Positions 2,653-46,569 of a DNA stretch of 46,880 bases are shown here, piece after piece. How positions within the stretch are numbered: position 1 is the stretch's first letter; each line of letters starts with the position of its first letter. This DNA is from Escherichia phage BEK2, in the sequence record MN158206.1, one strand, 5' to 3'. Under the pieces are notes generated by a model. The model was not told where the DNA came from, searched no databases, and saw only the letters and a program-made list of their open reading frames with translations. Made by a program: the position numbers and the translations under genes.

Positions 2653-2692
2653 CACGAATTGCTAAACATAAAAGCCAGGGATGGCTTATAGT
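2650..2692 (+). promoter_or_regulatory. composite early-type promoter (TAGCACGAATTGCTA + -10 TATAGT)
   Basis: box 2650-2664, -10 2687-2692 (37-bp phasing), spacer contains inverted repeat agcca/tggct. Confidence 0.6.
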
Positions 2693-3132: not shown

Positions 3133-3158
3133 AGCCCCTAAATGGGGCTTTTTTTATT
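3133..3158 (+). terminator. intrinsic terminator
   Basis: hairpin agcccc-taaat-ggggct followed by T7 run. Confidence 0.7.
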
Positions 3159-3168
3159 GGAGAAAAAC

Positions 3169-4437
3169 ATGGTTAAGACAGACAGCTACGCCAATATATT
3201 TCTCGGCGGCAGTGATGGTAGTGAGATTTACGGGAGCTTACAGAATCAGGAACCTACAATTCTGGGTTCGCTTTATGCAAATAATGCCATAGTGCGTAGA
3301 ATTATCGACACAATCCCTGAGACAGCATTAGCGGCAGGATTCCACATTGATGGCATTGATGATGAGCCTGCCTTCTGGTCACGCTGGGATGATCTAGAAA
3401 TGACGCAGAATATTAACGATGCTTGGTCTTGGGCTAGATTATTCGGTGGAGCCGCTATTGTCGCTATCGTTAAGGACAATAGGGCGCTAACAAGTCCTGT
3501 CAGAGAAGGTGCCGAACTTGAAACTGTTAGAGTTTACGACCGCACACAAGTAAAAGTACAAACTCGCGAGGAGAATCCCCGTAACGCACGTTTTGGTAAG
3601 CCACTAACCTATCGCATTACCACAAATGAGAGCGATATGTTCTATGATGTGCATTACAGCAGAATTCACATCATTGACGGAGAGCGAATTCCTAACGTAA
3701 TGCGTCGGCAAAATGACGGCTGGGGCCGCAGCGTTCTATCCAGTGACATTCTTGACTCAATCAAGGATTACACCAACTGCGAACGACTGGCTACGCAACT
3801 ACTGAGAAGAAAGCAGCAAGCAGTGTGGAAAGCCAAAGGTCTGGCTGAGTTGTGTGATGATAGCGAGGGATTTGGTGCCGCAAGGTTGCGCCTAGCACAG
3901 GTTGATAATAATAGCGGAGTTGGTCAGGCGATTGGGATTGATGCAGAATCTGAAGAGTATAGCGTTCTAAACTCTGACATTGGCGGGATTGATGCGTTTC
4001 TGGATAAGAAGTTTGACAGAATCGTTGCTCTGAGCGGTATTCATGAAATTATCCTCAAGAACAAAAACGTTGGCGGCGTGTCATCAAGTCAAAACACTGC
4101 ACTTGAGACATTCCACAAGCTAATTGACCGCAAGCGTAACTCTGAGCTGCTTCCTGTTCTTGAGTTCTTAATTCCGTTCATCGTTAACGTTGACGAATGG
4201 TCGGTTGAGTTTAACCCCTTAGCTCAGGAATCAAGCAAGGACAAAGCGGAGATTCTGGAGAGGAACGTAAACAGCATCGCGACGCTAATTGCATCTGGCG
4301 CTATGGATATTGATGAGGCGAGAGATACATTGCGTACAATCGCTCCAGAGGTTAAGATTAGTGACGGTTCAGTAGAGACAGAGGTGACAATTAGTGAAAC
4401 CAGTAACGACCCGCTGGAAGTATCCGCAGACAATTGA
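3169..4437 (+). CDS. portal protein
   Basis: ATG 3169 after terminator (track start 3142 lies in the hairpin); ~420 aa, follows terL, precedes Mu-F-like head protein. Confidence 0.8.
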   Translation: MVKTDSYANIFLGGSDGSEIYGSLQNQEPTILGSLYANNAIVRRIIDTIPETALAAGFHIDGIDDEPAFWSRWDDLEMTQNINDAWSWARLFGGAAIVAIVKDNRALTSPVREGAELETVRVYDRTQVKVQTREENPRNARFGKPLTYRITTNESDMFYDVHYSRIHIIDGERIPNVMRRQNDGWGRSVLSSDILDSIKDYTNCERLATQLLRRKQQAVWKAKGLAELCDDSEGFGAARLRLAQVDNNSGVGQAIGIDAESEEYSVLNSDIGGIDAFLDKKFDRIVALSGIHEIILKNKNVGGVSSSQNTALETFHKLIDRKRNSELLPVLEFLIPFIVNVDEWSVEFNPLAQESSKDKAEILERNVNSIATLIASGAMDIDEARDTLRTIAPEVKISDGSVETEVTISETSNDPLEVSADN

Positions 4438-6772: not shown

Positions 6773-6797
6773 AAGCCTCCTTCGGGAGGTTTTTTTA
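6773..6797 (+). terminator. intrinsic terminator
   Basis: aagcctcc-ttcg-ggaggtt + T7. Confidence 0.7.
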
Positions 6798-7818: not shown

Positions 7819-7852
7819 CGCCCTCTTCGGAGGGCTTTTTTTACGTCTGTAC
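7819..7852 (+). terminator. intrinsic terminator
   Basis: cgccctc-ttcg-gagggc + T7. Confidence 0.7.
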
Positions 7853-8152: not shown

Positions 8153-8193
8153 CAAACAGGGCGCTTCGGCGTCCTTTATTGTATGGAGCTAAT

Positions 8194-8595
8194 ATGAATG
8201 ATGCAATTTTGGCGTTTATGCGCTCTCTTGTTCCTGCTCTCAAAGCGGTGGATGACGAATCAATTAATGTATGGATTGATTTGGCACGTCTATACGTATG
8301 CGAAAGCAAGTTTGGCGCAGACAAAGATAAGGCCGTAGGACTTTACGCACTACACCTAATGCTTGCTGATGGCGCGTTTAAGGGTGAGAGTGAAGGGCTG
8401 GAAACATACAGCCGTAGAATGGCAAGTTATGCACTGAGCGGTGAATTCTCTATCACCTATGATAGCCAATCAGCAATCCAAGGTGATTTATCATCTTCCT
8501 CCTGGGGGCGCATGTACAAAGCACTGCTCCGCAAGAAAGGTGGCGGCTTCGGTTTAATTACTTCCGCTGGTGGCGGTGGGTGCGGTTGCCGATGA
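8194..8595 (+). CDS. head-tail connector protein
   Basis: ATG 8194 with GGAG RBS; position after capsid; Gly-rich C-terminus. Confidence 0.45.
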   Translation: MNDAILAFMRSLVPALKAVDDESINVWIDLARLYVCESKFGADKDKAVGLYALHLMLADGAFKGESEGLETYSRRMASYALSGEFSITYDSQSAIQGDLSSSSWGRMYKALLRKKGGGFGLITSAGGGGCGCR

Positions 8596-10475: not shown

Positions 10476-10497
10476 ACCCTCTTCGGAGGGTTTTTTA
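10476..10497 (+). terminator. intrinsic terminator
   Basis: ccctc-ttcg-gaggg + T6. Confidence 0.7.
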
Positions 10498-10502
10498 TTG
10501 CA

Positions 10503-10545
10503 TAGCACTTTTTGCTAAAGCACTTATCCAATCTTCCTGTATAGT
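10503..10545 (+). promoter_or_regulatory. composite early-type promoter (TAGCACTTTTTGCTA + -10 TATAGT)
   Basis: box 10503-10517, -10 10540-10545, leader 'ctcATCGAAACGAAA'. Confidence 0.6.
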
Positions 10546-11500: not shown

Positions 11501-11519
11501 CCCGCTTCGGCGGGTTTTC
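11500..11519 (+). terminator. intrinsic terminator/attenuator
   Basis: aacccgc-ttcg-gcgggtttt. Confidence 0.5.
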
Positions 11520-14904: not shown

Positions 14905-14928
14905 AAGCCCCTATGAGGGGCTTTTTTA
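14905..14928 (+). terminator. intrinsic terminator
   Basis: aagcccc-tatga-ggggc + T6. Confidence 0.65.
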
Positions 14929-17024: not shown

Positions 17025-17047
17025 TACCCGCCTAGTGCGGGTTTTTT
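17025..17047 (+). terminator. intrinsic terminator
   Basis: acccgc-ctagt-gcgggt + T6. Confidence 0.65.
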
Positions 17048-29140: not shown

Positions 29141-29155
29141 TAGCACGAATTGCTA
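29141..29155 (+). promoter_or_regulatory. orphan TAGCACGAATTGCTA box (no phased -10 for adjacent gene)
   Basis: perfect box between primase terminator and tail-fiber start codon, antisense to both. Confidence 0.4.
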
Positions 29156-29180
29156 AGTTGGATTGTAGCATCTTTCGGGT

Positions 29181-29202
29181 ATAAAAAACCTCCCGAAGGA
29201 GG
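29181..29202 (-). terminator. intrinsic terminator after primase gene
   Basis: minus sense cctcc-ttcg-ggagg + T6. Confidence 0.65.
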
Positions 29203-30126
29203 TTAGCTATTCAATAAGTCACTTGCCTTATATATCTTCTTCCTGATGCCGCTCTTGAATGAGTATTCATCATTTGGTATTACCACGTCAATACACCTGT
29301 CATCCGCAACGCAAAGCAACTCTCTGTCAAGTTTGCACGCCACTCTCAGCTTTTGGTTTCTAAGCGCGTAAGCAACCATTTCCATGTTGTAACTGGAGTA
29401 GCAAACAAGCACACAGCGGTTGCCAGTAGCAATGTGAACACGATAGCCGTCAATGAGATTATCGACCAGATAAGCGAACTCACCATCCTTAAGGGAACCA
29501 ATAACAGCCACAGACTGGCGAGTGTAATCTTTTGCGGCATAACTAACATCTCCTTCTTCATTGATAAACATTACATTGCACATTTCTTCTGATATACCAT
29601 CACCATAAGCCATGAAGCAAGGTATTGCATGGATTAATTCACCTGATTTTGCTCTACCAACATCAAAGCCAAACTCGCTATAGATTCCCTCGTATATACT
29701 GAGTGGGGTTGATTCTACTCTTTCCGTCCTTCCCATTATCTCTAAGCATCTTTCGTGGTCAATTTGAGCGCCCATTTTGTAGAGCTGGGTTCTTGATGCT
29801 TGCTTGTTTGCCTTGTTGACAACCTCAACCGGGATAAGGTTTAGCCACTCACCGAGAACGTCGATACACTCACTGAATGACTCGCCTCGCAGCTTCTGGA
29901 CCCAGAGAATTCCATCCCCTGAGCCGCACTGGTTGCAGATAATGCCACCATCACCATCTTCGCTAACCTTGTTTGTCCATCTCGCGCGATCGTTTCCACC
30001 GCAATAGATGCATGGCTTGTGCTTCTTGGTCTGGAAAAACTTAGGATCTGCGCCGCAGATGTTTATAAGCGCCTTATCCCACAGTCCGCGCATTCTTGGT
30101 AGAACCTCTTTCTTATCGTAGTGCAT
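29203..30126 (-). CDS. DNA primase (zinc-ribbon + catalytic domain)
   Basis: 'PCIYCGGNDRARW...GGIICNQCGSGDGI' matches primase Zn-ribbon pattern. Confidence 0.65.
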   Translation of the reverse strand: MHYDKKEVLPRMRGLWDKALINICGADPKFFQTKKHKPCIYCGGNDRARWTNKVSEDGDGGIICNQCGSGDGILWVQKLRGESFSECIDVLGEWLNLIPVEVVNKANKQASRTQLYKMGAQIDHERCLEIMGRTERVESTPLSIYEGIYSEFGFDVGRAKSGELIHAIPCFMAYGDGISEEMCNVMFINEEGDVSYAAKDYTRQSVAVIGSLKDGEFAYLVDNLIDGYRVHIATGNRCVLVCYSSYNMEMVAYALRNQKLRVACKLDRELLCVADDRCIDVVIPNDEYSFKSGIRKKIYKASDLLNS

Positions 30127-34650: not shown

Positions 34651-35781
34651 ATGGCAACTGCAAAGATTAGCAACGAACAACTACGCGAAGAACTGGCAAG
34701 TGGCATGACCAACAAGGCAATCGCAGAGAAGTACGGAATGAACATTCGCAATGTTGAATTGCGTCGTAGTAAATTGGCTAAGAGCGGGGAATTGCACGGG
34801 AACCCAGGCATCAAGAAACTAGTTCCTGACGGTTATATGGTTAAAGGCACATCAACAATGATTGACGCGGAAGGTAACGAGAAGATCAGATGGGTTAAAA
34901 CTTCAATAGATAATGAGCGACTTGAGGTTTTAATGGAGCAAGCGCGTGAGGCTTTTTGCTCTGATTTGCCAAAGGCAGATTCGGTCACCCACTCAGGTAA
35001 TGAGGTAAATTCTGAATTAATGACTCTTTACCCGATTTTTGATATCCATATCGGCATGATGGCTCATCGACATGAGTCTGGTGAAAATTATGACACCAAT
35101 ACCGCAGAGAAATTAATGGAATCATATTTCGATCATGCAATTTCTGTATCACCATCATCAGAGAAGGCTGTGATTTTGGTTGGCGGTGATTTCCTTCACT
35201 CTGACGGACTGGAGGCTGTAACTCCAGCAAGTGGGCACTGCCTTGATCAAGATAGTCGATATGCCAAGTTAGTTTATGTGGCAATTCGCTCAATTCGCGG
35301 TGCGGTAGAGAAGATGCTTAAGAAACACAAGGAAGTCGAGATTCAAATCATAGAGGGAAATCATGACCAAAGTGGTATGATTTGGCTTCGTGCGGCAATG
35401 GCTGCATTTTATGAAAGCGAGAGTCGCGTGTTTGTTGATACCAGCCCGGCAATCATGCACAAAACACGATTTGGCTCAACACTACTTGGTTACACGCACG
35501 GTCACACGATGAAGAAAGCAGAAGGCAGGCTTGCAGCTATGGCAACTGATTACAGGAAAGATTTTGGTGAGTGTGAATTTGTTTATTGCCACTCCGGGCA
35601 TTTTCACCACGCAACTGTTACAGAGTGCACTCTTGGGATTGATGAGGTTCACCCAGCTCTGGCTAGCAAGGATGCATATGCCGCTCGAGGAGGGTGGCGA
35701 TCATATCGCCAAGCGGCTGCAATTGTTTACCACAAGAATTTTGGCGAGGTTGGTAGACACATTTATCGCCCAGGTATGTAA
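34651..35781 (+). CDS. calcineurin-like metallophosphoesterase with N-terminal HTH
   Basis: 'DIHIGMM', 'GGDFLHSDG', 'EGNHD', 'GHTH' phosphoesterase motifs; N-terminal 'MTNKAIAEKYGMNIRNVELRR'. Confidence 0.65.
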   Translation: MATAKISNEQLREELASGMTNKAIAEKYGMNIRNVELRRSKLAKSGELHGNPGIKKLVPDGYMVKGTSTMIDAEGNEKIRWVKTSIDNERLEVLMEQAREAFCSDLPKADSVTHSGNEVNSELMTLYPIFDIHIGMMAHRHESGENYDTNTAEKLMESYFDHAISVSPSSEKAVILVGGDFLHSDGLEAVTPASGHCLDQDSRYAKLVYVAIRSIRGAVEKMLKKHKEVEIQIIEGNHDQSGMIWLRAAMAAFYESESRVFVDTSPAIMHKTRFGSTLLGYTHGHTMKKAEGRLAAMATDYRKDFGECEFVYCHSGHFHHATVTECTLGIDEVHPALASKDAYAARGGWRSYRQAAAIVYHKNFGEVGRHIYRPGM

Positions 35782-37247: not shown

Positions 37248-37265
37248 TATGCTTTTCTTTTCTAT

Positions 37266-37463
37266 TTAATCTCTTTCAACCGTGAAAGTTTTGCTAAATT
37301 GCTCATTTGTCATAGTTACAAATCCATTTCTGTGCTTAACCTTCATGTTTTCACTTCCGGCATACATATACTCATATACTCTACCGACAGTAAAGTAAAT
37401 GAAGCACATTTCCTCTCTCTCACTCAGGTTTGCAAAAGACATGCCTTTATATTTGGCCTTCAT
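37266..37463 (-). CDS. hypothetical protein
   Basis: 65 aa ORF. Confidence 0.4.
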   Translation of the reverse strand: MKAKYKGMSFANLSEREEMCFIYFTVGRVYEYMYAGSENMKVKHRNGFVTMTNEQFSKTFTVERD

Positions 37464-37543
37464 GATAATTTCCTTTCTCTTCTTAGTTTATATGGATTAA
37501 TAATAACAAAAGCCCACAAGGGGCTTTTAACAAAAGGTGCTAT

Positions 37544-37879
37544 TTAAGAGAATAACTCGTCGTCCGTCATTGTTCCTATATTCATCATCTCTTTTATGTA
37601 CTTGCTCTCATACCCGCTAAGTGCCTCGAAATTGAAATCAAACGGCCTCTTCAGGCTACCCTTGCTAACAAACTCACCACACTTACCATTAATGTAACCC
37701 GCACTCAACATCTTCGCGCAAAACTCCTTTGAAGCAGCGCTGCAAAATTCCCTATGCGACAACCCGGCGGCTTTGCTAAATCTCTGAGAGTCCTTGTGTT
37801 GGTAGATGAATCGCGCCAAATGCTGCCGTGTGAAATATGAATACGACTCGCAGAACTTAAATATATCTAGCAGGAACAT
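37544..37879 (-). CDS. hypothetical protein
   Basis: 111 aa Cys-containing ORF downstream of ATPase gene. Confidence 0.45.
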   Translation of the reverse strand: MFLLDIFKFCESYSYFTRQHLARFIYQHKDSQRFSKAAGLSHREFCSAASKEFCAKMLSAGYINGKCGEFVSKGSLKRPFDFNFEALSGYESKYIKEMMNIGTMTDDELFS

Positions 37880-37882
37880 TCA

Positions 37883-39466
37883 TCACCCCAGCAGTCGCGG
37901 ATTAATGTAAACCTTATCACCAATCAGGCACGTGTAGTTTTTCTCGTCAAGCATTGGCAGTAGGTGATCTTTAATCTTCGTCATTACCCCAGCCTGAGCC
38001 TCGAACGGCTTAACCTTTCGAGCAGCTTCATATAATGAGCGAATACCAACTACACCCTTGCCGTTCTTTCCTTGCTTGATCAGGATATCAATCAGCTTAT
38101 TCATCTCGGCATTATCGCCAGCGTGACCAGCGGCGTTAGCAGATGAAAGATAAGTCTTGCTAAGTTCATTGAACATAATTACAGCTTCTTGCATGGTATC
38201 AAGCTCAATCTCTCTTGACTTCTGTGGACTCCCGCCATTTGGGTTAAACCAGTTACGCACAGTGTGAAGAACCGCCGCAATCCTGATGGCCTGCTTATCG
38301 AACTTACCCAGGGCGCCGCGCAACATTGTGTGGGAATACTTCCCGCCGTCCGCAAGGTGAGGCTCCATCTCCTGACGTGCGCGGTTAAGATACTTCATTG
38401 CTGAGTTGCTCACTGTCAACTTAACATCTTGCTCATTCATTATTTCATGAACTAATCGGAAATAGTCGGCCTTGAGTCCACCATCAATTGGCTCATATGT
38501 TGAATCTCCATTCTCATCAACAAACACACGCTCGCCCAAAAATGACTTTTCACGCACAAGCAGAAATCGCTCCGACACACCGATACCACGTGCGCCAGCG
38601 TTCATGATTGCATTGATTGTTTCGTCTTGCGCAATTACTGAGATGCAACCCATAGCAACGAAGCTCATGTTGTTCTCTGCGTTCGCACGCGCAATGGACA
38701 CGTTACCAGCATCCCATGCCTTCAGTACAAGTTCGCTGTTCGTCTTCTTGGATCCGTCACCGTACGTCATACCTAGCAGTGAGTTGACGCTCGTCGCCTC
38801 ATCAGAGATAACCGCGAAGTTACCTTGTCGGTTGTTTATTCGTGCCAGACCTTCCGGCGTGGTGTCGGATACAGGGAAAACGATATCACAAAGTTTCTCG
38901 AGCTTTTCCTCAAGCTCCTCCTTCTCCTCAAAAAGAGAAGCCATCTCTGAAGGAGATTTCTCCTGCTTCATCTCTTTGGATAATGCAGATAGTTTGGCCA
39001 TGATCTTCTTGCGCTCACGCTTGCGAACTTCATTAAGACGCTCAGTCTCAGCAATCATTGGAGCAATCGATAGCGAGTTAATTGCTGATTTACCAGTTGA
39101 TGGCGGCTGGCTTGTCACGACGTAGAGCGCAGTTGGTTGTTGGGTTCCATGATACTCAACTGTAAATCGGCCCAGCATCGCAGCGGAAATACACCCCAGG
39201 AAGTGCATGTATGCGGACGACTCAGGAAACTGAACCGAACGAGCTATGTTAGATGACAGTTTGCCAACAACATCAATATCATTACCTAGTGAGATTACGG
39301 GATACTTGTCATTAGCTGCATCAATCTCGACCGGAGCCTTCCAAAATGATTGAGAATGACGATAGCCATTGGCATTGATAGCGACGCGCAGGGGTGGGAG
39401 GTTGTCCGCAGCAGCAATTGCCATAACCTGTTCAACAGACAGTTTATCTTCGTTGAAATCAAACAT
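37883..39466 (-). CDS. P-loop ATPase, putative replication initiator/helicase
   Basis: Walker A 'SQPPSTGKSA', Walker B 'FAVISDEAT'; N- and C-terminal segments paralogous to 42798..43322. Confidence 0.65.
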   Translation of the reverse strand: MFDFNEDKLSVEQVMAIAAADNLPPLRVAINANGYRHSQSFWKAPVEIDAANDKYPVISLGNDIDVVGKLSSNIARSVQFPESSAYMHFLGCISAAMLGRFTVEYHGTQQPTALYVVTSQPPSTGKSAINSLSIAPMIAETERLNEVRKRERKKIMAKLSALSKEMKQEKSPSEMASLFEEKEELEEKLEKLCDIVFPVSDTTPEGLARINNRQGNFAVISDEATSVNSLLGMTYGDGSKKTNSELVLKAWDAGNVSIARANAENNMSFVAMGCISVIAQDETINAIMNAGARGIGVSERFLLVREKSFLGERVFVDENGDSTYEPIDGGLKADYFRLVHEIMNEQDVKLTVSNSAMKYLNRARQEMEPHLADGGKYSHTMLRGALGKFDKQAIRIAAVLHTVRNWFNPNGGSPQKSREIELDTMQEAVIMFNELSKTYLSSANAAGHAGDNAEMNKLIDILIKQGKNGKGVVGIRSLYEAARKVKPFEAQAGVMTKIKDHLLPMLDEKNYTCLIGDKVYINPRLLG

Positions 39467-39539
39467 TACTTCTCTCCGTATTGTTTCTGAGCGGACATTA
39501 TATCAACGACCGCTTATAATTCATTATCAATTTTGCTAT

Positions 39540-39893
39540 TTACAGGTATTGCGCCTCAAAATGGTACGTCTGGCAAAGAGTGTAAAATCCAACATCCTCG
39601 CTGCGGTAAAGCTGCCAAGCATTACCATCCTCATCGTAAATGTAACCGGCATTTTGCCCTATCCCGGCATGCATAGATACCTGGTAGCGCTTTCCTTCTT
39701 TAAAGTCTTTTTTAACTCCTGACTTGTGGTTAACCTTTGTGCAGTAAAGCGTCTTAGTCTTGACGTACTTACCGCGCTCTTCGAGGTTAACCCATTTGCC
39801 ATCTTTCTTAATCTGCTCCACACCATCTTTAACGCGAGCTTTGTAGAGTACGTTTTCGTTGCTGATCCAGCTTTTAGTAATCGTAGTGGTCAT
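39540..39893 (-). CDS. hypothetical protein
   Basis: 117 aa ORF with own promoter. Confidence 0.5.
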   Translation of the reverse strand: MTTTITKSWISNENVLYKARVKDGVEQIKKDGKWVNLEERGKYVKTKTLYCTKVNHKSGVKKDFKEGKRYQVSMHAGIGQNAGYIYDEDGNAWQLYRSEDVGFYTLCQTYHFEAQYL

Positions 39894-39929
39894 TTTGTTT
39901 TCCTTTTCGTGTTTCGTTTCGATGAGATT

Positions 39930-39972
39930 AATATACAGGAAAAGCCCCGAAGGGCTTTAGCAATTAGTGCTA
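39930..39972 (-). promoter_or_regulatory. composite early-type promoter with embedded terminator hairpin
   Basis: box 39958-39972, hairpin aagccc-ttcg-gggctttt in spacer, -10 TATATT 39930-39935, leader 'tctcATCGAAACGAAAC'. Confidence 0.55.
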
Positions 39973-40208
39973 TTTATTTCCTTGAGTCCAAGTGGCGTTA
40001 TCACTACCTTATACCAAGTTCCAATCTCTGGCTTATTTACATTATATGCCAGCTCTACATAACCTAGCCGAAATAGTTTTGGTATACCTCTGGATGACTT
40101 GCCACAATCACGAATCCTGCCGCGATTAAGGTCATAGCTTATTTGATGAATCTCTCCATTATGAATACAGTGGAGGGTTTTTATTGCGGATTCAGAAATT
40201 TTAATCAC
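39957..40208 (-). CDS. hypothetical protein
   Basis: 83 aa, GTG start; C-terminus 'NSTNC' encoded by the box. Confidence 0.45.
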   Translation of the reverse strand: MIKISESAIKTLHCIHNGEIHQISYDLNRGRIRDCGKSSRGIPKLFRLGYVELAYNVNKPEIGTWYKVVITPLGLKEINSTNC

Positions 40209-40375
40209 TTATTTTCACCGTTAATATTCTTCGCATTCTCTATCGCCTTGAGCATAATTTCATGACTCTCAAGCAAGTCCTCGCGGAACCAGTCGCCGCA
40301 AGGCCAGCCCTTACCAGACATCTTTGACACAACTTCAAAATCCCAATAACTCAAATCTGAAGGTAATAGCATCAT
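40205..40375 (-). CDS. hypothetical small protein (56 aa)
   Basis: overlapping start/stop with both neighbours. Confidence 0.3.
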   Translation of the reverse strand: MMLLPSDLSYWDFEVVSKMSGKGWPCGDWFREDLLESHEIMLKAIENAKNINGENK

Positions 40376-40611
40376 TTCACCTCATCAAAAGTTGCAATCC
40401 CAGGAATAAACATTCCAACCTTCCATCCTGCAATGGCAATCCAGCCAGAATCGTTCTTGTGCGGTCGCTCAGCGCCTTTAATTAACCATTCGTTCGGGAT
40501 TGTCTTGCCGTTAATGATTAGTGGCTCAGCGTCGTACATAGAGCCTTTAACGAACGGTGTCAAAACCTTCTTATCGGTACTGGTAATAACGTTAGTGCAG
40601 CGAATTTTCAT
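40372..40611 (-). CDS. hypothetical protein
   Basis: 79 aa ORF. Confidence 0.5.
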   Translation of the reverse strand: MKIRCTNVITSTDKKVLTPFVKGSMYDAEPLIINGKTIPNEWLIKGAERPHKNDSGWIAIAGWKVGMFIPGIATFDEVK

Positions 40612-40781
40612 TGCACCACCTCAAACTCACCAGGGTGAATAACAAGCGGTTTAGATGTGCCATCCATTATTACCACCCTACCATCTCCGCAATCCATGAA
40701 TACATCGTAAACTTCGCCAATCTCAATGCCGTAATAATCTGTTGTGTAAATCGTGTCAAACTTAACAATCTTAATTTTCAT
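40608..40781 (-). CDS. hypothetical small protein (57 aa)
   Basis: GAGGAT RBS, ATGA overlap with downstream gene. Confidence 0.35.
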   Translation of the reverse strand: MKIKIVKFDTIYTTDYYGIEIGEVYDVFMDCGDGRVVIMDGTSKPLVIHPGEFEVVQ

Positions 40782-40791
40782 ATCTCAATCC

Positions 40792-40968
40792 TCAAAATGG
40801 AATGCAGTCTTGGCAGCCAAGTCCATCGCAGCACAGGAATTCATCCTCTGACTGGAATTGCTTAGCCAGATCAATATCTATTCGTCCGCGGACAACCATT
40901 TCGGTGTAATCTTCGTTAAGACCAATCAGTGCGCATTCGTGACGTAACTTATCTTTATCAATCTTCAT
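40792..40968 (-). CDS. hypothetical small Cys-rich protein (58 aa)
   Basis: 'CCDGLGCQDC' cluster; weak RBS. Confidence 0.3.
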   Translation of the reverse strand: MKIDKDKLRHECALIGLNEDYTEMVVRGRIDIDLAKQFQSEDEFLCCDGLGCQDCIPF

Positions 40969-41022
40969 ATCTATACCATCGTTTGGTTTGTGCCGGATGT
41001 CGTCCGGCGGCGATATAATTTA

Positions 41023-41262
41023 TTAGTGCTGCTTTGCTGTGTAAAACTTCCAGTCATCCTGGACTTCAATCAATGTCCCGTTGGCTATCATTGCACTAAG
41101 GCTATCTTCAGTAAGGAGAGTTCTCAGCCAGGTATATTTGTTTCCTACGCGAACATTGCCACAGTTATTAAACACGCTACCGTTTACCAGCATCATCTCA
41201 ACGCCTTTTGAGCCAGGCTTAGTGAAGAGGCGTTTTTCTGTTTTAGTGGTCTGGATGCTCAT
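41023..41262 (-). CDS. hypothetical protein
   Basis: 79 aa, GGAGA RBS, own promoter. Confidence 0.5.
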   Translation of the reverse strand: MSIQTTKTEKRLFTKPGSKGVEMMLVNGSVFNNCGNVRVGNKYTWLRTLLTEDSLSAMIANGTLIEVQDDWKFYTAKQH

Positions 41263-41300
41263 TTTTATCTCCGGTGTGTTCGTTTCGTTTCGATGAAGTA

Positions 41301-41343
41301 ACTATACGCCATCCGTGGCGGTGAGTTTTAGCAATTCGTGCTA
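41301..41343 (-). promoter_or_regulatory. composite early-type promoter (box + -10 TATAGT)
   Basis: box 41329-41343, -10 41301-41306, leader 'cttcATCGAAACGAAACG', spacer inverted repeat cgcca/tggcg. Confidence 0.6.
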
Positions 41344-41633
41344 TTGCGTTCGATGTATGCATTAATTTCTTCAGCAGTTTCCATTGCGGAGCGGAAAGCG
41401 CCTTTTGCGTGGCGAGAATCTCGGAATGACTGGAAAAATTTACGAGCAACGTTTGCGAACATCGCGCCAGTGATACGAGAATCACCGAAATTAGTTTCGA
41501 TTGAGTTACTGATGCCATCACGGAACTCATTCTCAGCCATGAACATCTCAGCCATTTCTGCGGTGGCGAAAAGGTCTGCCAGTGCTTGCATGTTTTCGTG
41601 GTCAGCTTTAGTGAAAAGGTTCATGTTAATCAT
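41328..41633 (-). CDS. hypothetical protein (first gene of leftward early operon)
   Basis: 101 aa; C-terminus 'NSTNC' encoded by box. Confidence 0.5.
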   Translation of the reverse strand: MINMNLFTKADHENMQALADLFATAEMAEMFMAENEFRDGISNSIETNFGDSRITGAMFANVARKFFQSFRDSRHAKGAFRSAMETAEEINAYIERNSTNC

Positions 41634-41670
41634 TTTTGTGTCTCCGTGAGTTCTTCGTTTCGATGGAGTA

Positions 41671-41714
41671 ATAATAGCGAATCACACCCGATCGGTCATT
41701 AGCAAAAAGTGCTA
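41671..41714 (-). promoter_or_regulatory. composite early-type promoter (box TAGCACTTTTTGCTA + -10 TATTAT)
   Basis: box 41700-41714, -10 41671-41676, leader 'ctccATCGAAACGAAGAA'. Confidence 0.55.
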
Positions 41715-42300
41715 TTCGTTAGATTTATGGATTGTTGCAGATATTGCAATGATTCACATAATTATTGCACATACAGCAATATTGCTTCAGATGCAATGAT
41801 GTTTTTGATTGTTGCGAAAAGTGAAATGAAGTGGGGAGTGAGCGAATGAAAGATGGATGGACTACCATACAAGTTGATTTTGATTCTGGCTGGGCCATTT
41901 TCACGCCTACACGTAACGCCAGTAGCGCGATGTAAGCCAAGGCCAATCGTTACGTGAGTTACGCGCAGCTACGCCCGGACTTACACTATAAGTGCTTAAT
42001 ATATATATATATCTTCTTTCTATTATTATTATTAATATTAATATTATTGTATGTAAGTCGTGTAACGTGGGTCCTAGCGATATCTATATGTTTTTTCCTA
42101 TCAGAATACATTATTGCTATTTTATGTGGGATTTAGCCAGTATGGGGCCATTGCACTCATTTGCCTCGTTACACGCACGACACGAAACTACATTGAGCTA
42201 TAGCTGGGCTGGTGTGCCATTTCGCGTAACGACCCCCAAAAGTTACCAAAAATTACACTTGACTACATGTGTAAGTCGGGATATGATGGACTCAACTTAA
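41715..42300. repeat. divergent control region B: ATTGCA iteron array, GTTACG repeats, AT-rich tract, two copies of the shared block (candidate origin)
   Basis: (A/G)TTGC(A/T) about 7 copies 41730-41815; block copies about 41887-41920 and 42190-42232; (TA)n/(TTA)n tract 41995-42055. Confidence 0.5.
42259..42287 (+). promoter_or_regulatory. strong sigma70 promoter (rightward early)
   Basis: -35 TTGACT, 17-bp spacer, -10 TATGAT. Confidence 0.65.
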
Positions 42301-42318
42301 ACGAGAGGAGTGATAGAG

Positions 42319-42798
42319 ATGAACGAGAAGGTAACATTAGGCCAAGTGATTCGTGAGATGGTAAAGGCGGCGCTTAAGTCTGAGGATAAGCAGATCAGCG
42401 TGACACTCAACAAGATTGAGAGCCTTATTGGCGCAGAGGAGGGTGGTCTACATAAGCTTAAGAGCTCATACATCTATAATACAACGGCTCGCATGCCTGA
42501 GTTGAGAGATGCCGGACTGAAGGCGACCCACCATTATGATGAGGATGAGGGTGATAGTGAGTTTGGTGAAACCACTCTGGCTGGGGAAAAGAAGTTAGTT
42601 ATCAAGCTGATTCCTGGAGCTGCAAACATTGGAATCAGGAAGAAGACCAACGACGCGATCAAGGATGAGGCAATCAATGGGTTCAAGGCCAAGATTTCGA
42701 AGGTGATGCCAGACCTCTCTGAGTATGAGGGTGAAGCGCTTGCAGCCGCCATGAAGGCCATTAAGGATTACCGTTTAATTATTGAGGAGATTAAGTAA
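42319..42798 (+). CDS. hypothetical protein (first rightward early gene)
   Basis: ATG 42319 with GAGGAG RBS (track GTG 42310). Confidence 0.55.
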   Translation: MNEKVTLGQVIREMVKAALKSEDKQISVTLNKIESLIGAEEGGLHKLKSSYIYNTTARMPELRDAGLKATHHYDEDEGDSEFGETTLAGEKKLVIKLIPGAANIGIRKKTNDAIKDEAINGFKAKISKVMPDLSEYEGEALAAAMKAIKDYRLIIEEIK

Positions 42799-43322
42799 TG
42801 TTTGACTTTAACGAGGATAAACTGACAGAAGAGCAGGTTATGCAAGTAGCCATGGCAGATAGCCTTCCACCACTACGTGTTGCAATCAGCGCTAACGGGT
42901 ATCGACAGTCAACGGCGTTTTGGGGTTCGATTGATACCTCAGAGGTGTATAGTGGTGATGAGCTTGGTGTACTGATTAAAATCATCAGGAAAATGGGAGT
43001 TAACGGCAAAGGAGTTGTCGGCATTAGGTCTCTATACGAAGGTGCTCGCAAGGTTAAGCCCTTTGAGGGTAGCAATGGAATCATGGCGCGTATTAAGGAT
43101 GAGCTCATCCCAGCTCTAGAGGAAATTAATATCGCTTGCCTAATTGGAGATAAGATTTATGTCCACCCAGCTATCATTGATGAGTACTGGCAACCCAACT
43201 TCAAAACTTACGAAGGTGAGCACCCCAGTAGACTACCACACCACTTGCGATACAGTGACGATGAGATAATAAAGGCGATTCGGTTCTACTGGGAAGCTAA
43301 ATCACTGCTTAGCGGCGGATAG
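42798..43322 (+). CDS. truncated paralog of the 37883..39466 ATPase (N- and C-terminal domains only)
   Basis: 'MFDFNEDKLTEEQVMQVAMADSLPPLRVAISANGYRQS' and 'NGKGVVGIRSLYEGARKVKPFE...CLIGDKIYVHP' match both ends of the 527-aa protein. Confidence 0.6.
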   Translation: MFDFNEDKLTEEQVMQVAMADSLPPLRVAISANGYRQSTAFWGSIDTSEVYSGDELGVLIKIIRKMGVNGKGVVGIRSLYEGARKVKPFEGSNGIMARIKDELIPALEEINIACLIGDKIYVHPAIIDEYWQPNFKTYEGEHPSRLPHHLRYSDDEIIKAIRFYWEAKSLLSGG

Positions 43323-43362
43323 CACGAATTGCTAAAAGGGGATTCATCCTGACTGGTATAAT
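43320..43362 (+). promoter_or_regulatory. composite early-type promoter (TAGCACGAATTGCTA + -10 TATAAT)
   Basis: box 43320-43334, perfect TATAAT 43357-43362. Confidence 0.6.
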
Positions 43363-43516
43363 CCCCACATCAACCACGCGAATGGAAGTTAAGTGACCAT
43401 ATACGAACATAGATTCAGCAGCAGGGGTATTGATATGCTTCTGCACTATATAGACGAAAAATACGCAAAGCTCATGCTTAAGACGCATGGCGGCACAATA
43501 ACGAGGATTAACAAAA

Positions 43517-44149
43517 ATGGCTAAAATTATCATTCTTAACGGACCCGCTTCTATTGGTAAGGACACTATTGGCAACGCGTTATGCTATGATTACCGATGC
43601 ATCAAAACCAGCCTTAAGCGTCCAATGTTTGAAATTGCCGAGTCAATCCTGGGGGTGGAGGCATTCAGTAAGTTCATCACGGCTTATGATGACCGAGATC
43701 AGAAAGAGATGCCTCAGAGCTTCCTTGGTGGCAAGACCTGCCGCGAGTTCATGATCTGGATTAGCGAAACGGTAGTCAAGCCTCTATTTGGCAACCAGCA
43801 ATTCGGTAAGCTGATGAGCGAACATATAAATCTGTGTGATGAAGGATTCACGTTCGTTTGCACTGATGGCGGGTTCACTGATGAAGTCATAAAGCTTGTT
43901 GAAGATGGTCACGATGTTACCGTTGTGCGTCTATTTATGGATGGCAAGACCTTCGCAGGCGATAGTCGTAATTACATCCACATTGAAGAATCTCAGTTCC
44001 ATTACTGCTCGTGGTATCAGGAGTGTGACGTGCATCTAATAAGTGGTGACATTGATGGCGGTGTCCTGGCGGTGGCTGAGGCTTGCGGTATTAGCTCATC
44101 AGTCCCAGAGGTTGATGTTTACGAGTGGGAAGATGGATTGCCCTGGTAA
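43517..44149 (+). CDS. P-loop nucleotide kinase (dNMP-kinase-like)
   Basis: Walker A 'LNGPASIGKDT' resembling T4 gp1 'GVKRSGKDT'. Confidence 0.55.
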   Translation: MAKIIILNGPASIGKDTIGNALCYDYRCIKTSLKRPMFEIAESILGVEAFSKFITAYDDRDQKEMPQSFLGGKTCREFMIWISETVVKPLFGNQQFGKLMSEHINLCDEGFTFVCTDGGFTDEVIKLVEDGHDVTVVRLFMDGKTFAGDSRNYIHIEESQFHYCSWYQECDVHLISGDIDGGVLAVAEACGISSSVPEVDVYEWEDGLPW

Positions 44150-44150
44150 A

Positions 44151-44193
44151 TAGCACTTTTTGCCTAACCCTCTTCGGAGGGTTTTGTTATAGT
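44151..44193 (+). promoter_or_regulatory. composite promoter variant with embedded terminator (TAGCACTTTTTGCCTA, hairpin, -10 TGtTATAGT)
   Basis: box 44151-44166, hairpin ccctc-ttcg-gaggg + T4 (44167-44186), -10 44188-44193, leader 'tcccATCGAAAGCAAAC'. Confidence 0.55.
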
Positions 44194-44231
44194 TATCCCA
44201 TCGAAAGCAAACAACCAAACGGAGCTACAAA

Positions 44232-44324
44232 ATGATTTCTTTACTGATGATTATCCCTGCTGTTATCGCCCTGGGTCTGATGGTTAGTGCTGGTGAGTTC
44301 TACGTCCCAGTCAACAAGAAATAG
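44232..44324 (+). CDS. hypothetical small hydrophobic peptide (30 aa)
   Basis: 'MISLLMIIPAVIALGLMVSAG...' single TM; own promoter; stop in next box. Confidence 0.3.
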   Translation: MISLLMIIPAVIALGLMVSAGEFYVPVNKK

Positions 44325-44363
44325 CACGAAATGATAAGCCGCTCCGGCGGGTTTTGTTATAGT
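44322..44363 (+). promoter_or_regulatory. degenerate composite promoter (TAGCACGAAATGATA + hairpin + -10 TGtTATAGT)
   Basis: -10 44358-44363 at 36 bp. Confidence 0.4.
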
Positions 44364-44392
44364 TAGTTCACACCAAGCGAGAGGAAAGAGAA

Positions 44393-44485
44393 GTGAAGCA
44401 ATACCCATCAAGCAATCACCATAACGGTCACATCATGCAGTTCTATCGCCACAATCTGAAGACTAATGGAGTATTTGGAAAATGA
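44393..44485 (+). CDS. hypothetical small protein (30 aa)
   Basis: GTG with GAGAGGAAAGAG RBS; ATGA overlap with next gene. Confidence 0.3.
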
Positions 44486-44721
44486 TTACAATTAACCTGT
44501 CAGATAAAGACGCAGAAATGCTAAAGAGTATTATTATGAAACCAATGTACTCCACGCTCTCATTCGAGCAGATGCGAGTAGTGAAAGAAGTTGGCACACA
44601 GATTAATAATCAGCAGTTCGACGTTAGCGACTTCGATTCATCTCGTCAATACGAGTCGCTTAGCGTCAATGCTGCGTACATTGATAAAGCAGTATGGGAA
44701 AAGGCGAGAAATAAAAAATGA
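44482..44721 (+). CDS. hypothetical protein
   Basis: 79 aa ORF. Confidence 0.5.
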
Positions 44722-44855
44722 TTTACATCCACACGTACTACACTGGTAAGTTTAATAGCGTTAAGCATGCTCGAGTTCACGATAGCTACGATAGTGCAAA
44801 GGCTCAATGGTTGGTTCTTGGTGGTGATATTAATTCATATAGAGTCGCTGAATAG
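44718..44855 (+). CDS. hypothetical small protein (45 aa)
   Basis: ATGA overlap upstream; stop TAG inside box. Confidence 0.35.
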   Translation: MIYIHTYYTGKFNSVKHARVHDSYDSAKAQWLVLGGDINSYRVAE

Positions 44856-44895
44856 CACTAATTGCTAAAACAGTATTGGGGTAATTTGTTATAGT
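44853..44895 (+). promoter_or_regulatory. composite early-type promoter (TAGCACTAATTGCTA + -10 TGtTATAGT)
   Basis: box 44853-44867, -10 44890-44895, leader 'ccccATCGAAACGAACGAGG'. Confidence 0.6.
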
Positions 44896-44925
44896 TACCC
44901 CATCGAAACGAACGAGGAAGCAGAA

Positions 44926-45105
44926 ATGAAATTCCAACAAGGCGACCCCAAGCTCCAGGCCAACCACTTCGATGGCTACGCAACATTCATCATCGCCCAG
45001 GCATGCGGAATGTGTGAAGAGCCTCAGGTTCACACAATCCACTTAACCGAAGAGCAAGCCCGAGAGCTGGCTTACGAAATTCTAGAGCAATTGAACCGAA
45101 TTTAA
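44926..45105 (+). CDS. hypothetical protein (59 aa)
   Basis: ATG 44926 downstream of promoter/leader; antisense track ORF 44830..45042 rejected. Confidence 0.45.
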   Translation: MKFQQGDPKLQANHFDGYATFIIAQACGMCEEPQVHTIHLTEEQARELAYEILEQLNRI

Positions 45106-46492: not shown

Positions 46493-46569
46493 GCTCGAGT
46501 GGCGAAAGTGGATATCGCAAGAGACTTCTAATCTCTAGATTGCTGGTTCGAATCCAGCCTCGGGCGCCA
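46493..46569 (+). tRNA. tRNA-Arg (anticodon UCU)
   Basis: hand-folded cloverleaf: acceptor GCTCGAG/CTCGGGC (one G-U), D-stem GCGA/TCGC with GG in loop, anticodon stem AGAGA/TCTCT, loop CT-TCT-AA, T-arm GCTGG-TTCGAAT-CCAGC, discriminator G, encoded CCA. Confidence 0.8.

Follow-up and report, generated by a model that had tools for sequence, protein, structure and literature searches.

Why do GC-rich hairpins stand between the two halves of what look like promoters in a T1-like phage? The sequence of Escherichia phage BEK2 (record MN158206.1; 46,880 nucleotides, all of which we refer to as the window) contains repeated gene junctions in which a conserved box is followed, across a spacer of 22 nucleotides (nt), by a -10-like hexamer. 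An earlier note on positions 39930-44363 had proposed that intrinsic terminators are nested in these spacers, so that one compact element ends the upstream gene, terminates its transcript and restarts transcription, and that this nesting explains why the spacer is fixed in length and free in sequence. The reading that we favour, and hold to be somewhat more probable than its competitors taken together, is that the sites are gene-junction cassettes of T1-like phages whose spacer hairpins appear to be selected in the message arriving from upstream, four of them having a leaky-terminator-like anatomy. Positions 39000-45000 of the window are 100% identical to Escherichia phage BEK3 (MN158207.1), a T1/Rtp-like member of the Drexlerviridae, Braunvirinae. 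Outside that region the two records differ by a few substitutions, the first at 3252, and by a 4-nt indel between 20000 and 30000, which shifts coordinates by 4 nt from about 30000 on.

Predicted spacer hairpins in the upstream message

The junction motif reads AAATAGCAC-N3-TTGCTA, 22 nt, a -10-like hexamer (TATAGT, TATAAT or TATTAT) and then yyCATCGAAACGAAAC. The window holds 19 good copies of it, whose spacer/-10 segments form our window sample. The spacing is 22 nt except in three copies with 21-23 nt, and copy orientation matches that of the flanking genes nearly throughout, the exception being the copy at 29141. The box itself, 18-21 nt long, has the form AAATAGCAC-N3-TTGCTAAA and carries stop codons in three frames. 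ATAGCAC occurs 19 times in the window against an expected 6.3 +/- 2.7, and TAGCAC-N25-36-TATAGT seven times against 0.04. For the family we took the boxes of T1 and of 120 IMG/VR loci matching the box, which gave 320 unique boxes, and we called a hexamer -10-like if its second base was A, its sixth was T and no fewer than four of the six matched TATAAT. Such a hexamer lies exactly 22 nt past TTGCTA in 226 of the 320; every other spacing tested has 0-26, among them 21 nt with 16 and 23 nt with 15. Across 104 non-redundant junctions of T1-like phages, on which all family-wide fold statistics are based, conservation is seen at G-14 (0.73), C-1 (0.75) and A+1 (0.80) and, moderately, for T at -17; positions -30 to -18 carry zero information content. 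The hexamer is often TGn-extended and is followed 7 nt downstream by a predicted CA start and an A/C-rich leader.

This spacer folds far better than its controls. The 19 window segments have a mean minimum free energy (MFE) of -8.22, compared with -4.55 +/- 0.48 after column permutation (0 of 500 sets reach the observed value) and -5.17 for random genomic 40-mers (0 of 300). The 104 family junctions average -10.2 against -4.85 +/- 0.20 kcal/mol in column-permuted sets, and 66% of them, compared with 13% of controls, reach an MFE of -8 or lower. A neutral stem search, in which every mismatch is penalised alike, gives a stem score of at least 6 in 83 of the 104 junctions (about 28 in controls) and of at least 8 in 50% (3.8% in controls). 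Within the window, hairpins are present at most other copies besides those that the earlier reader named. Individual hairpins reach only z values of -0.9 to -3.7, as chance GC palindromes in a few spacers might; nevertheless both the family-wide and the window-only permutation tests refute chance, which we regard as having next to no probability.

The stems fall into three registers. In register A the stem lies within the spacer and abuts the -10, in C it overlaps the hexamer, and in B it encloses the hexamer in its loop, with its 3' arm at -6 to -1. T1 favours register B and BEK3 register A. Among the internal 1x1 mismatches of 162 unique hairpins, G:T outnumbers A:C by 54 to 5 (15:0 in register A, 27:1 in C and 12:4 in B); non-redundant representatives give 19:4 and permuted controls 1.26:1.52. 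Since G:U is tolerated in sense-strand RNA only, this excess argues for selection on sense-strand RNA and makes it unlikely that the repeats act as a cruciform or as a protein site in double-stranded DNA. Because transcripts from the promoter itself would begin downstream of the stems, the structure must form in RNA coming from upstream. At orthologous junctions (BEK3 35783, Rtp, T1 41957 and others) the hairpin is kept while the sequence of its stem differs. Rfam has no family that matches any junction, its sole hit being a tRNA.

The link to upstream transcription is also visible in gene order. Relative to the T of TAGCAC, the stops offered by the box lie at -4 (TAA), 0 (TAG) and +13 (TAA), and of the family's upstream open reading frames (ORFs) with 50 codons or more, about 199 in number, 181 end at -4, -3, 0 or +13. 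In the window the upstream ORF stops within the box at 15 of the 19 sites, among them all four at which the hairpin is followed by a run of T. The claim that the element ends the upstream gene is thereby supported. Strong hairpins are found at 60% of the family junctions with an ORF ending in the box and at 28% elsewhere (p = 0.0013); in the window the mean MFE is -9.17 with such an ORF (n = 15) and -3.32 at the remaining sites (n = 4; p = 0.0018). These four weak sites are 23295 and 41714, the first promoters of divergent blocks; 29141, an antisense orphan box; and 10503, immediately preceded by a stand-alone terminator. That terminator, CCCTCTTCGGAGGG followed by TTTTTTATT at 10477-10490 (+), precedes the box at 10500-10517, and the spacer of this junction contains no hairpin (MFE 0.0). 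Family-wide, a canonical terminator just upstream of the box goes with the lack of a strong spacer hairpin at four of four junctions (p = 0.006, at this small n). When the ORF stops at +13 the stem starts later, at a median spacer position of 11 instead of 7, and about 13 nt from the stop are kept. These sequence data support the view that the hairpins form in sense-strand RNA and that their presence is tied to transcription from upstream.

Could the inverted repeats act on DNA instead, as a spacer cruciform or as a protein site serving the 22-bp promoter, for example by presenting or pre-melting the -10? The placing of the hexamer in the loop of many hairpins (register B, the T1 sites included) would suit such a role, as would a spacing that is non-canonical for sigma-70. 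Against it speak the mismatch bias and the fact that only the sense strand folds well, the existence of three register classes, the 20-30% of junctions that are hairpin-free and the absence of hairpins exactly where no upstream ORF or transcript arrives, and we consider an action on DNA very improbable. One form of it, a cruciform that shortens the spacer, is ruled out: extrusion would leave 2-8 bp, and one strand only pairs well. Predicted sense-strand RNA hairpins embedded in the promoter are, on this evidence, a family-wide trait of the Drexlerviridae, present at about 80% of more than 100 non-redundant junctions.

Terminator-like anatomy at four junctions

Are these RNA hairpins terminators? 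Four in the window are followed by a T-run, and all four are located downstream of a co-directional gene. One follows the box at 44148-44165 (+; AAATAGCACTTTTTGCCT), whose first bases are overlapped by the TAA stop of a deoxynucleoside monophosphate (dNMP) kinase-like ORF (43517-44149). Its hairpin, AACCCTC-TTCG-GAGGGTT at 44166-44183 (core 44168-44181; -10.5 kcal/mol, z -2.2), runs into TTGT up to 44187 and is followed by a TGT-extended -10, TATAGT, at 44188-44193; the predicted start is the A at 44200. A second lies on the minus strand, downstream of the box at 39958-39975 (AAATAGCACTAATTGCTA; TTGCTA at 39963-39958). Here an 83-codon ORF that lacks annotation (39957-40208) ends within TTGCTAA, its TAA stop being at 39959-39957. 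The 22-nt spacer (39936-39957) holds the hairpin AAGCCC-TTCG-GGGCTT (core 39955-39944) and then TTTTCCTG; from 39957 to 39942 the hairpin folds at -10.2 kcal/mol (z -2.6) and has TTTTCC after its stem. The -10, TATATT, occupies 39930-39935, with a predicted start at A 39923, the leader ATCGAAACGAAAC and a downstream ORF at 39893-39540. The earlier note had described both of these as GC hairpins with a T-run in the gap between box and -10 (39936-39957 and 44167-44186), and so they are.

A third T-run hairpin, absent from the earlier reader's list, has the lowest energy of the four (-11.0 kcal/mol, z -3.7). Its box, at 37528-37545 (-; AAATAGCACCTTTTGTTA), overlaps the TAA stop of an upstream 111-codon ORF at 37546-37544; the 22-nt spacer (37506-37527) consists of the hairpin AAAAGCCC-CTTGT-GGGCTTTT (core 37524-37512) and then TTTTGT, and the -10, TATTAT, comes directly after it at 37505-37500. 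The fourth belongs to the box at 44319-44336 (+; AAATAGCACGAAATGATA), the 3' half of which is degenerate (ATGATA). Here, too, the note had reported a hairpin with a T-run (44340-44357), and CCGC-TCCG-GCGG is indeed present at 44339-44350 with GTTTTGT following up to 44357, but its stem is only 4 bp, its fold is weak (-8.7 kcal/mol, z -0.9) and its spacer is 21 nt (44337-44357), not 22. A TGT-extended -10, TATAGT, follows at 44358-44363, with a predicted start at A 44370. The ortholog of this hairpin in BEK6 has a stronger stem, CCCGC-TCCT-GCGGG.

All four cores (44168-44181, 39955-39944, 37524-37512 and 44339-44350) are GC stem-loops of the kind found in intrinsic terminators, for which a stem of at least 4-5 bp and a loop of 3-8 nt were required, with energies of -8.7 to -11.0 kcal/mol when their extensions are counted. 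We scored hairpin plus tail by a d-score of d'Aubenton-Carafa form, which serves as an internal yardstick only; on it they obtain +22, +14, +12 and, at the borderline, -1.9, in the same order. Throughout the family, d exceeds 0 in 12 of the 104 junctions (about 12%) compared with 0.1 in permuted sets. The stem-loop at 44168, CCCTCTTCGGAGGG, recurs unchanged in the stand-alone terminator at 10477. Where a T-run follows, the hairpin ends at -21 to -19, which leaves room for UUUU(G/C)N before the hexamer; where none does, it ends at -13. Curated annotation of relatives points the same way: the GenBank record of T1 places a rho-independent terminator (41978-42000) in the spacer that follows the box at 41957, and in the supplementary table for phage TLS the terminator T62 starts one base after the repeat DR12 and T57 8 nt after DR10 (PMC11447400). 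Three or four window sites thus probably have the anatomy of terminators, and leaky ones. As a general statement, the claim that the element terminates is not supported: three window hairpins have positive d and a fourth is borderline, but only some 12% of the family's junctions have a usable U-tract.

The T-runs might be features of the promoter alone, made up of a T-rich -17 region and the TGn of an extended -10, with GC hairpins that are unrelated to them and no termination. All four runs do end in TGT or TG beside the hexamer, T-17 and G-14 are moderately conserved family-wide, and in the non-redundant representatives the coupling of T-run and stem is weak (1 of 4 versus 7 of 100, p = 0.28). 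In 231 unique sites, however, the same coupling is 3 of 6 versus 11 of 225 (p = 0.003), combinations of hairpin and T-run exceed the permuted expectation 100-fold, and the end points of the two kinds of hairpin differ as described above. We consider it improbable that the runs are nothing but promoter sequence.

A more serious competitor, if still an unlikely one in our estimate, holds that the hairpins are mainly stabilisers of 3' ends or processing barriers, which protect against 3' exonucleases after read-through and cleavage, and that the T-runs are incidental. It draws on the lack of a U-tract in most junction hairpins (d is below 0 in 92 of 104) and on one orthologous junction at which the loci L118 and L061 have, in place of the terminator-type hairpin of 44151, one that embraces the -10 without a U-tract. 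The association with ORFs and the G:T bias agree with such a role just as well. What it leaves aside is that the four window hairpins sit 6-9 nt further upstream, exactly the room for a U-run, that 12 junctions score as terminators where 0.1 are expected, that one stem-loop is the same as a stand-alone terminator's, and that the corresponding hairpins of T1 and TLS carry curated terminator annotations. A broader role for the whole hairpin class, such as 3'-end protection or pausing, is possible.

Several observations weigh against the cassette with nested terminators. The phage has about 14 stand-alone terminators with d of +30 to +64, well above the scores of the nested ones, and the 4-bp stem at 44339 is not significant on its own. 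Roughly 88% of junction hairpins lack a U-tract and about one third embrace the -10, and a terminator reading leaves these unexplained. The T-run also makes the TGn of an extended -10 and so is possibly a promoter feature, and a terminator that ends at the -10 leaves the box unshielded from polymerase reading through. RNAalifold found no common structure in 11 nested-terminator spacers, because the hairpins are shifted by 1-3 nt between sites, which makes column-based covariation unusable. PHROGs and Pfam searches on 10 neighbouring proteins, which are a DUF3987 helicase-like protein, the dNMP-kinase-like protein and DUF proteins, gave no DNA-binding or sigma-like family and hence no candidate for a factor acting at the box. 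Finally, the literature searched contained no transcriptome, promoter mapping or transcript-end data for T1-like phages.

With these points in mind we propose the following for the cassette. It would consist of a box with stops in three frames, exactly 22 bp of free sequence, a sigma-70-type -10, and a CA start with an A/C-rich leader, so that stop, hairpin and next promoter would be packed within about 50 bases. The unconstrained 22 bp would make up the 3' tail of the upstream transcript, where selection would favour folding into a GC hairpin. At the four T-run sites, where the hairpin is shifted upstream by 6-9 nt and UUUU(G/C)N comes after it, the result would be a leaky intrinsic terminator, and upstream transcripts would end in or beside the -10, about 10 nt before the next start. 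We infer termination itself, like promoter activity and the dependence on a factor, from this arrangement. Only tentatively do we extend the scheme to hairpins without a U-tract, which may also serve termination or hand-over, with the polymerase stopped by, or recycled onto, a factor-bound promoter, and to the junction as a portable module that moves ORFans between T1-like phages.

Hairpins of the U-tract-less kind include the shorter inverted repeats that the earlier note had placed at 2667-2686 and 41307-41328. We find them as AAGCCA-GGGA-TGGCTT at 2672-2687 (+), abutting the -10 TATAGT at 2687-2692 (-8.7 kcal/mol; d -17), and as CGCCA-CGGA-TGGCG at 41307-41320 (-), abutting the TATAGT at 41306-41301 (-8.7 kcal/mol; d -24), neither of them with a T-run. 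Two further hairpins lie around a -10: the stem TGGGGTA...TACCCCA at 44877-44902 (+) has TATAGT (44890-44895) in its loop, no U-tract and -13.4 kcal/mol alone, and the hairpin GGGGAT...ATCCCC at 43338-43366 (+) embraces the TATAAT at 43357-43362, its 38-nt spacer/-10 segment having -13.4 kcal/mol.

Strong stand-alone terminators (d +20 to +51) also occur between the late structural genes, on the plus strand at 3134-3148, 6776-6789, 7820-7835, 8159-8174, 11501-11514, 14907-14921 and 17027-17041. Their U-tracts run into the next Shine-Dalgarno sequence and no promoter comes after them, an arrangement that suggests that the late operon is subject to graded attenuation or to phage-directed antitermination.

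Proposed promoter geometry and the 22-bp spacer

If the hairpin does not set the length of the spacer, what does? The earlier note had the nesting explain the fixed length, and on this point we disagree with it. The 22 nt are equally rigid in the hairpin-free copies at 10503, 22503, 23295 and 33442, and the length must therefore come from promoter geometry; the free sequence of the spacer permits the hairpin, not the reverse.

At its downstream end the box-hexamer unit carries what appears to be a sigma-70-type -10 and start-site signature. The hexamer has the A at position 2 and the T at position 6 of a sigma-70 -10, and with G-14 and the C-1/A+1 start it fits a predicted promoter, in agreement with the proposal that the element restarts transcription. 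A TTGACA-like -35 is absent at 17 +/- 1 bp from the -10, where the sequence 17 bp upstream reads AAAACn. TTGCTA is no normal -35, because it sits 22 bp from the -10 and thus 5 bp too far upstream; the 22-bp spacer rules it out in that capacity. An ordinary consensus sigma-70 promoter is also present in the window, TTGACT-17-TATGAT at 42259-42287 in a divergent non-coding region, and the box promoters would therefore form a separate class.

Within the box, TAGCA-N5-TGCTA makes a near-palindrome of 5-N5-5 geometry, centred at about -42 if the start is taken to be 7 nt past the hexamer. In class II activator promoters, CRP and FNR sites are centred at -41.5, and lambda cI acts in this manner at PRM. 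The junctions resemble these promoters in having a dyad centred near -42 (a centre that rests on the inferred start), a good -10 at a rigid distance and a -35 that is poor or lacking. Most likely, then, the promoter would depend on a putative factor at the box, whose geometry would fix the 22 bp.

Another resemblance, that of TAGCAC-N3-TTGC (for example at 44151-44165) to the -24/-12 elements of sigma-54 promoters, we judge to be a coincidence. The sigma-54 consensus is TGGCAC-N5-TTGC, with GG at -24 and GC at -12; in the box the GG is absent and TAGCAC-N3-TTGC is 2 nt short, which rules out a sigma-54 promoter.

Further observations concern the box and its surroundings. The first 12-14 transcribed bases are conserved at all junctions (ATCGAAACGAAAC), A/C-rich and with almost no U (for example 39923-39910 on the minus strand and 44200-44213 on the plus strand); such a leader could be an unstructured translation enhancer, an RNase site or a signal of the initial transcribed region. 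The box unit at 29141-29203 (+) is opposed to both of its flanking minus-strand genes and lies beside a minus-strand terminator (29202-29189), and T1 (locus L002) has a box in the same position and orientation at 34903 (+). Its role may be to drive a short antisense RNA; alternatively, the box may be a protein site that works in either orientation. T1 also contains, at 8363 and 25022 (+), box-like sequences without a -10. They come just past annotated terminators, and the ribosome-binding sites of the genes for the small terminase and the tail fibre either follow at once or are overlapped by them, so that the box may have a function apart from the promoter. The 680-bp divergent non-coding region at 41640-42320 has a (TA)n/AT-rich stretch (41990-42050) as its core, and several palindromes in it, of the types TTGCA-N5-TGCAA and AGCAA-TA-TTGCT, share the 5-N5-5 geometry of the box; the region is probably an early control region or an origin.

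Gene turnover, related systems and significance

The junctions coincide with places where gene content changes between relatives. When BEK3 is aligned with three full relatives, BEK6, DTL and T145P1, there are 70 internal homology breakpoints, and 10 of them lie between -8 and +2 relative to a box edge, where 0.64 are expected (p about 1e-9); an earlier breakpoint test, a dc-megablast of the window against fragmentary IMG/VR loci, gave a 1.3-fold excess that was not significant. Between the junctions with boxes at 44148-44165 and 44319-44336 lies an unannotated 30-codon hydrophobic ORF (44232-44324, +; MISLLMIIPAVIALGLMVSAGEFYVPVNKK), whose TAG stop is the TAG of the second box. It has no match among 50,697 phage records except BEK3 itself, and BEK6 has a single junction where this ORFan sits between two, the outer flanks matching. 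Similarly, a cassette at 37257-37550 (-), made up of the junction with the box at 37528-37545 and a 65-codon ORF (37463-37266), is absent from DTL and T145P1, in which its flanks are contiguous.

Three ORFs have no annotation in the BEK3 record: 39957-40208 (-; 83 amino acids), 44232-44324 (+; 30 amino acids) and 44393-44485 (+; 30 amino acids). Their stops or starts fit the junction grammar. A tRNA-Arg gene (anticodon TCT) at 46493-46569 (+) is likewise missing from the BEK3 feature table.

The closest parallel comes from T4-type myoviruses. Promoter-early stem-loop (PeSL) cassettes were described in RB49/phi1, PST and nt-1 (Arbiol et al. 2010, PMC2839356; Comeau et al. 2014, PMC4122927), with promoter and terminator activity demonstrated by lacZ fusions and a role in ORFan shuffling. 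Our junctions share with them a promoter combined with a stem-loop, mostly between the -35 and -10 or over the -10, and G-T pairs in the stems; a stem-loop between or over the promoter boxes is found in 83 of the 104 (registers A, B and C). Both recur between genes in the order stop, promoter, stem-loop, Shine-Dalgarno sequence and start, here in 19 copies with the start codon about 70-85 nt past the box, and both flank ORFans and mark indel boundaries. Both are read as terminators or attenuators of upstream transcription, which in the present case are putative. The sequences, however, are unrelated: PeSLs are consensus sigma-70 early promoters with AT-rich upstream sequence, whereas our junctions, from siphoviruses of the Drexlerviridae, have a near-palindromic box 22 bp from the -10. 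They are a PeSL analogue, not a member of that class, and the layout of stop, hairpin and promoter is known in T4-type phages and has not been described for the T1-like family.

The box has been seen before. A 21-nt direct repeat, aaATAGCACnnnTTGnTAAAA, was reported in TLS and also in T1, Rtp and Rogue1 (PMC11447400, 2024). That study regarded it as a stand-alone element, a stoperator, an enhancer site or a UP element, and left its function unknown. The repeat corresponds to our box: it matches the consensus, is intergenic, is oriented along transcription and lies about 76 nt upstream of start codons; the paper reports no -10 at a fixed 22 nt, no in-box stops and no spacer hairpins. In the literature searched, no other paper mentions the box. 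Compared with the intrinsic terminators of E. coli and its phages, the T-run hairpins have the same GC stem of 4-5 bp with an A-U extension, UUCG-like loop and U-rich tail, the same location after a co-directional ORF and the same one-strand action; they differ in their shorter stems, interrupted U-tracts and lower scores, and in a U-tract that overlaps the -10 region.

Functional nested terminators would gate early read-through just where a regulated promoter takes over, which would amount to a compact temporal switch and would offer synthetic biology a ready-made insulating part; if they fail, the family-wide hairpins without a U-tract still need explaining. The repeat of unknown function in TLS gains a testable role, as the upstream half of what may be about 20 promoters per genome. 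And the PeSL design, with stop, terminator or hairpin, and promoter in one portable junction, would have been reached by a second, unrelated phage lineage.

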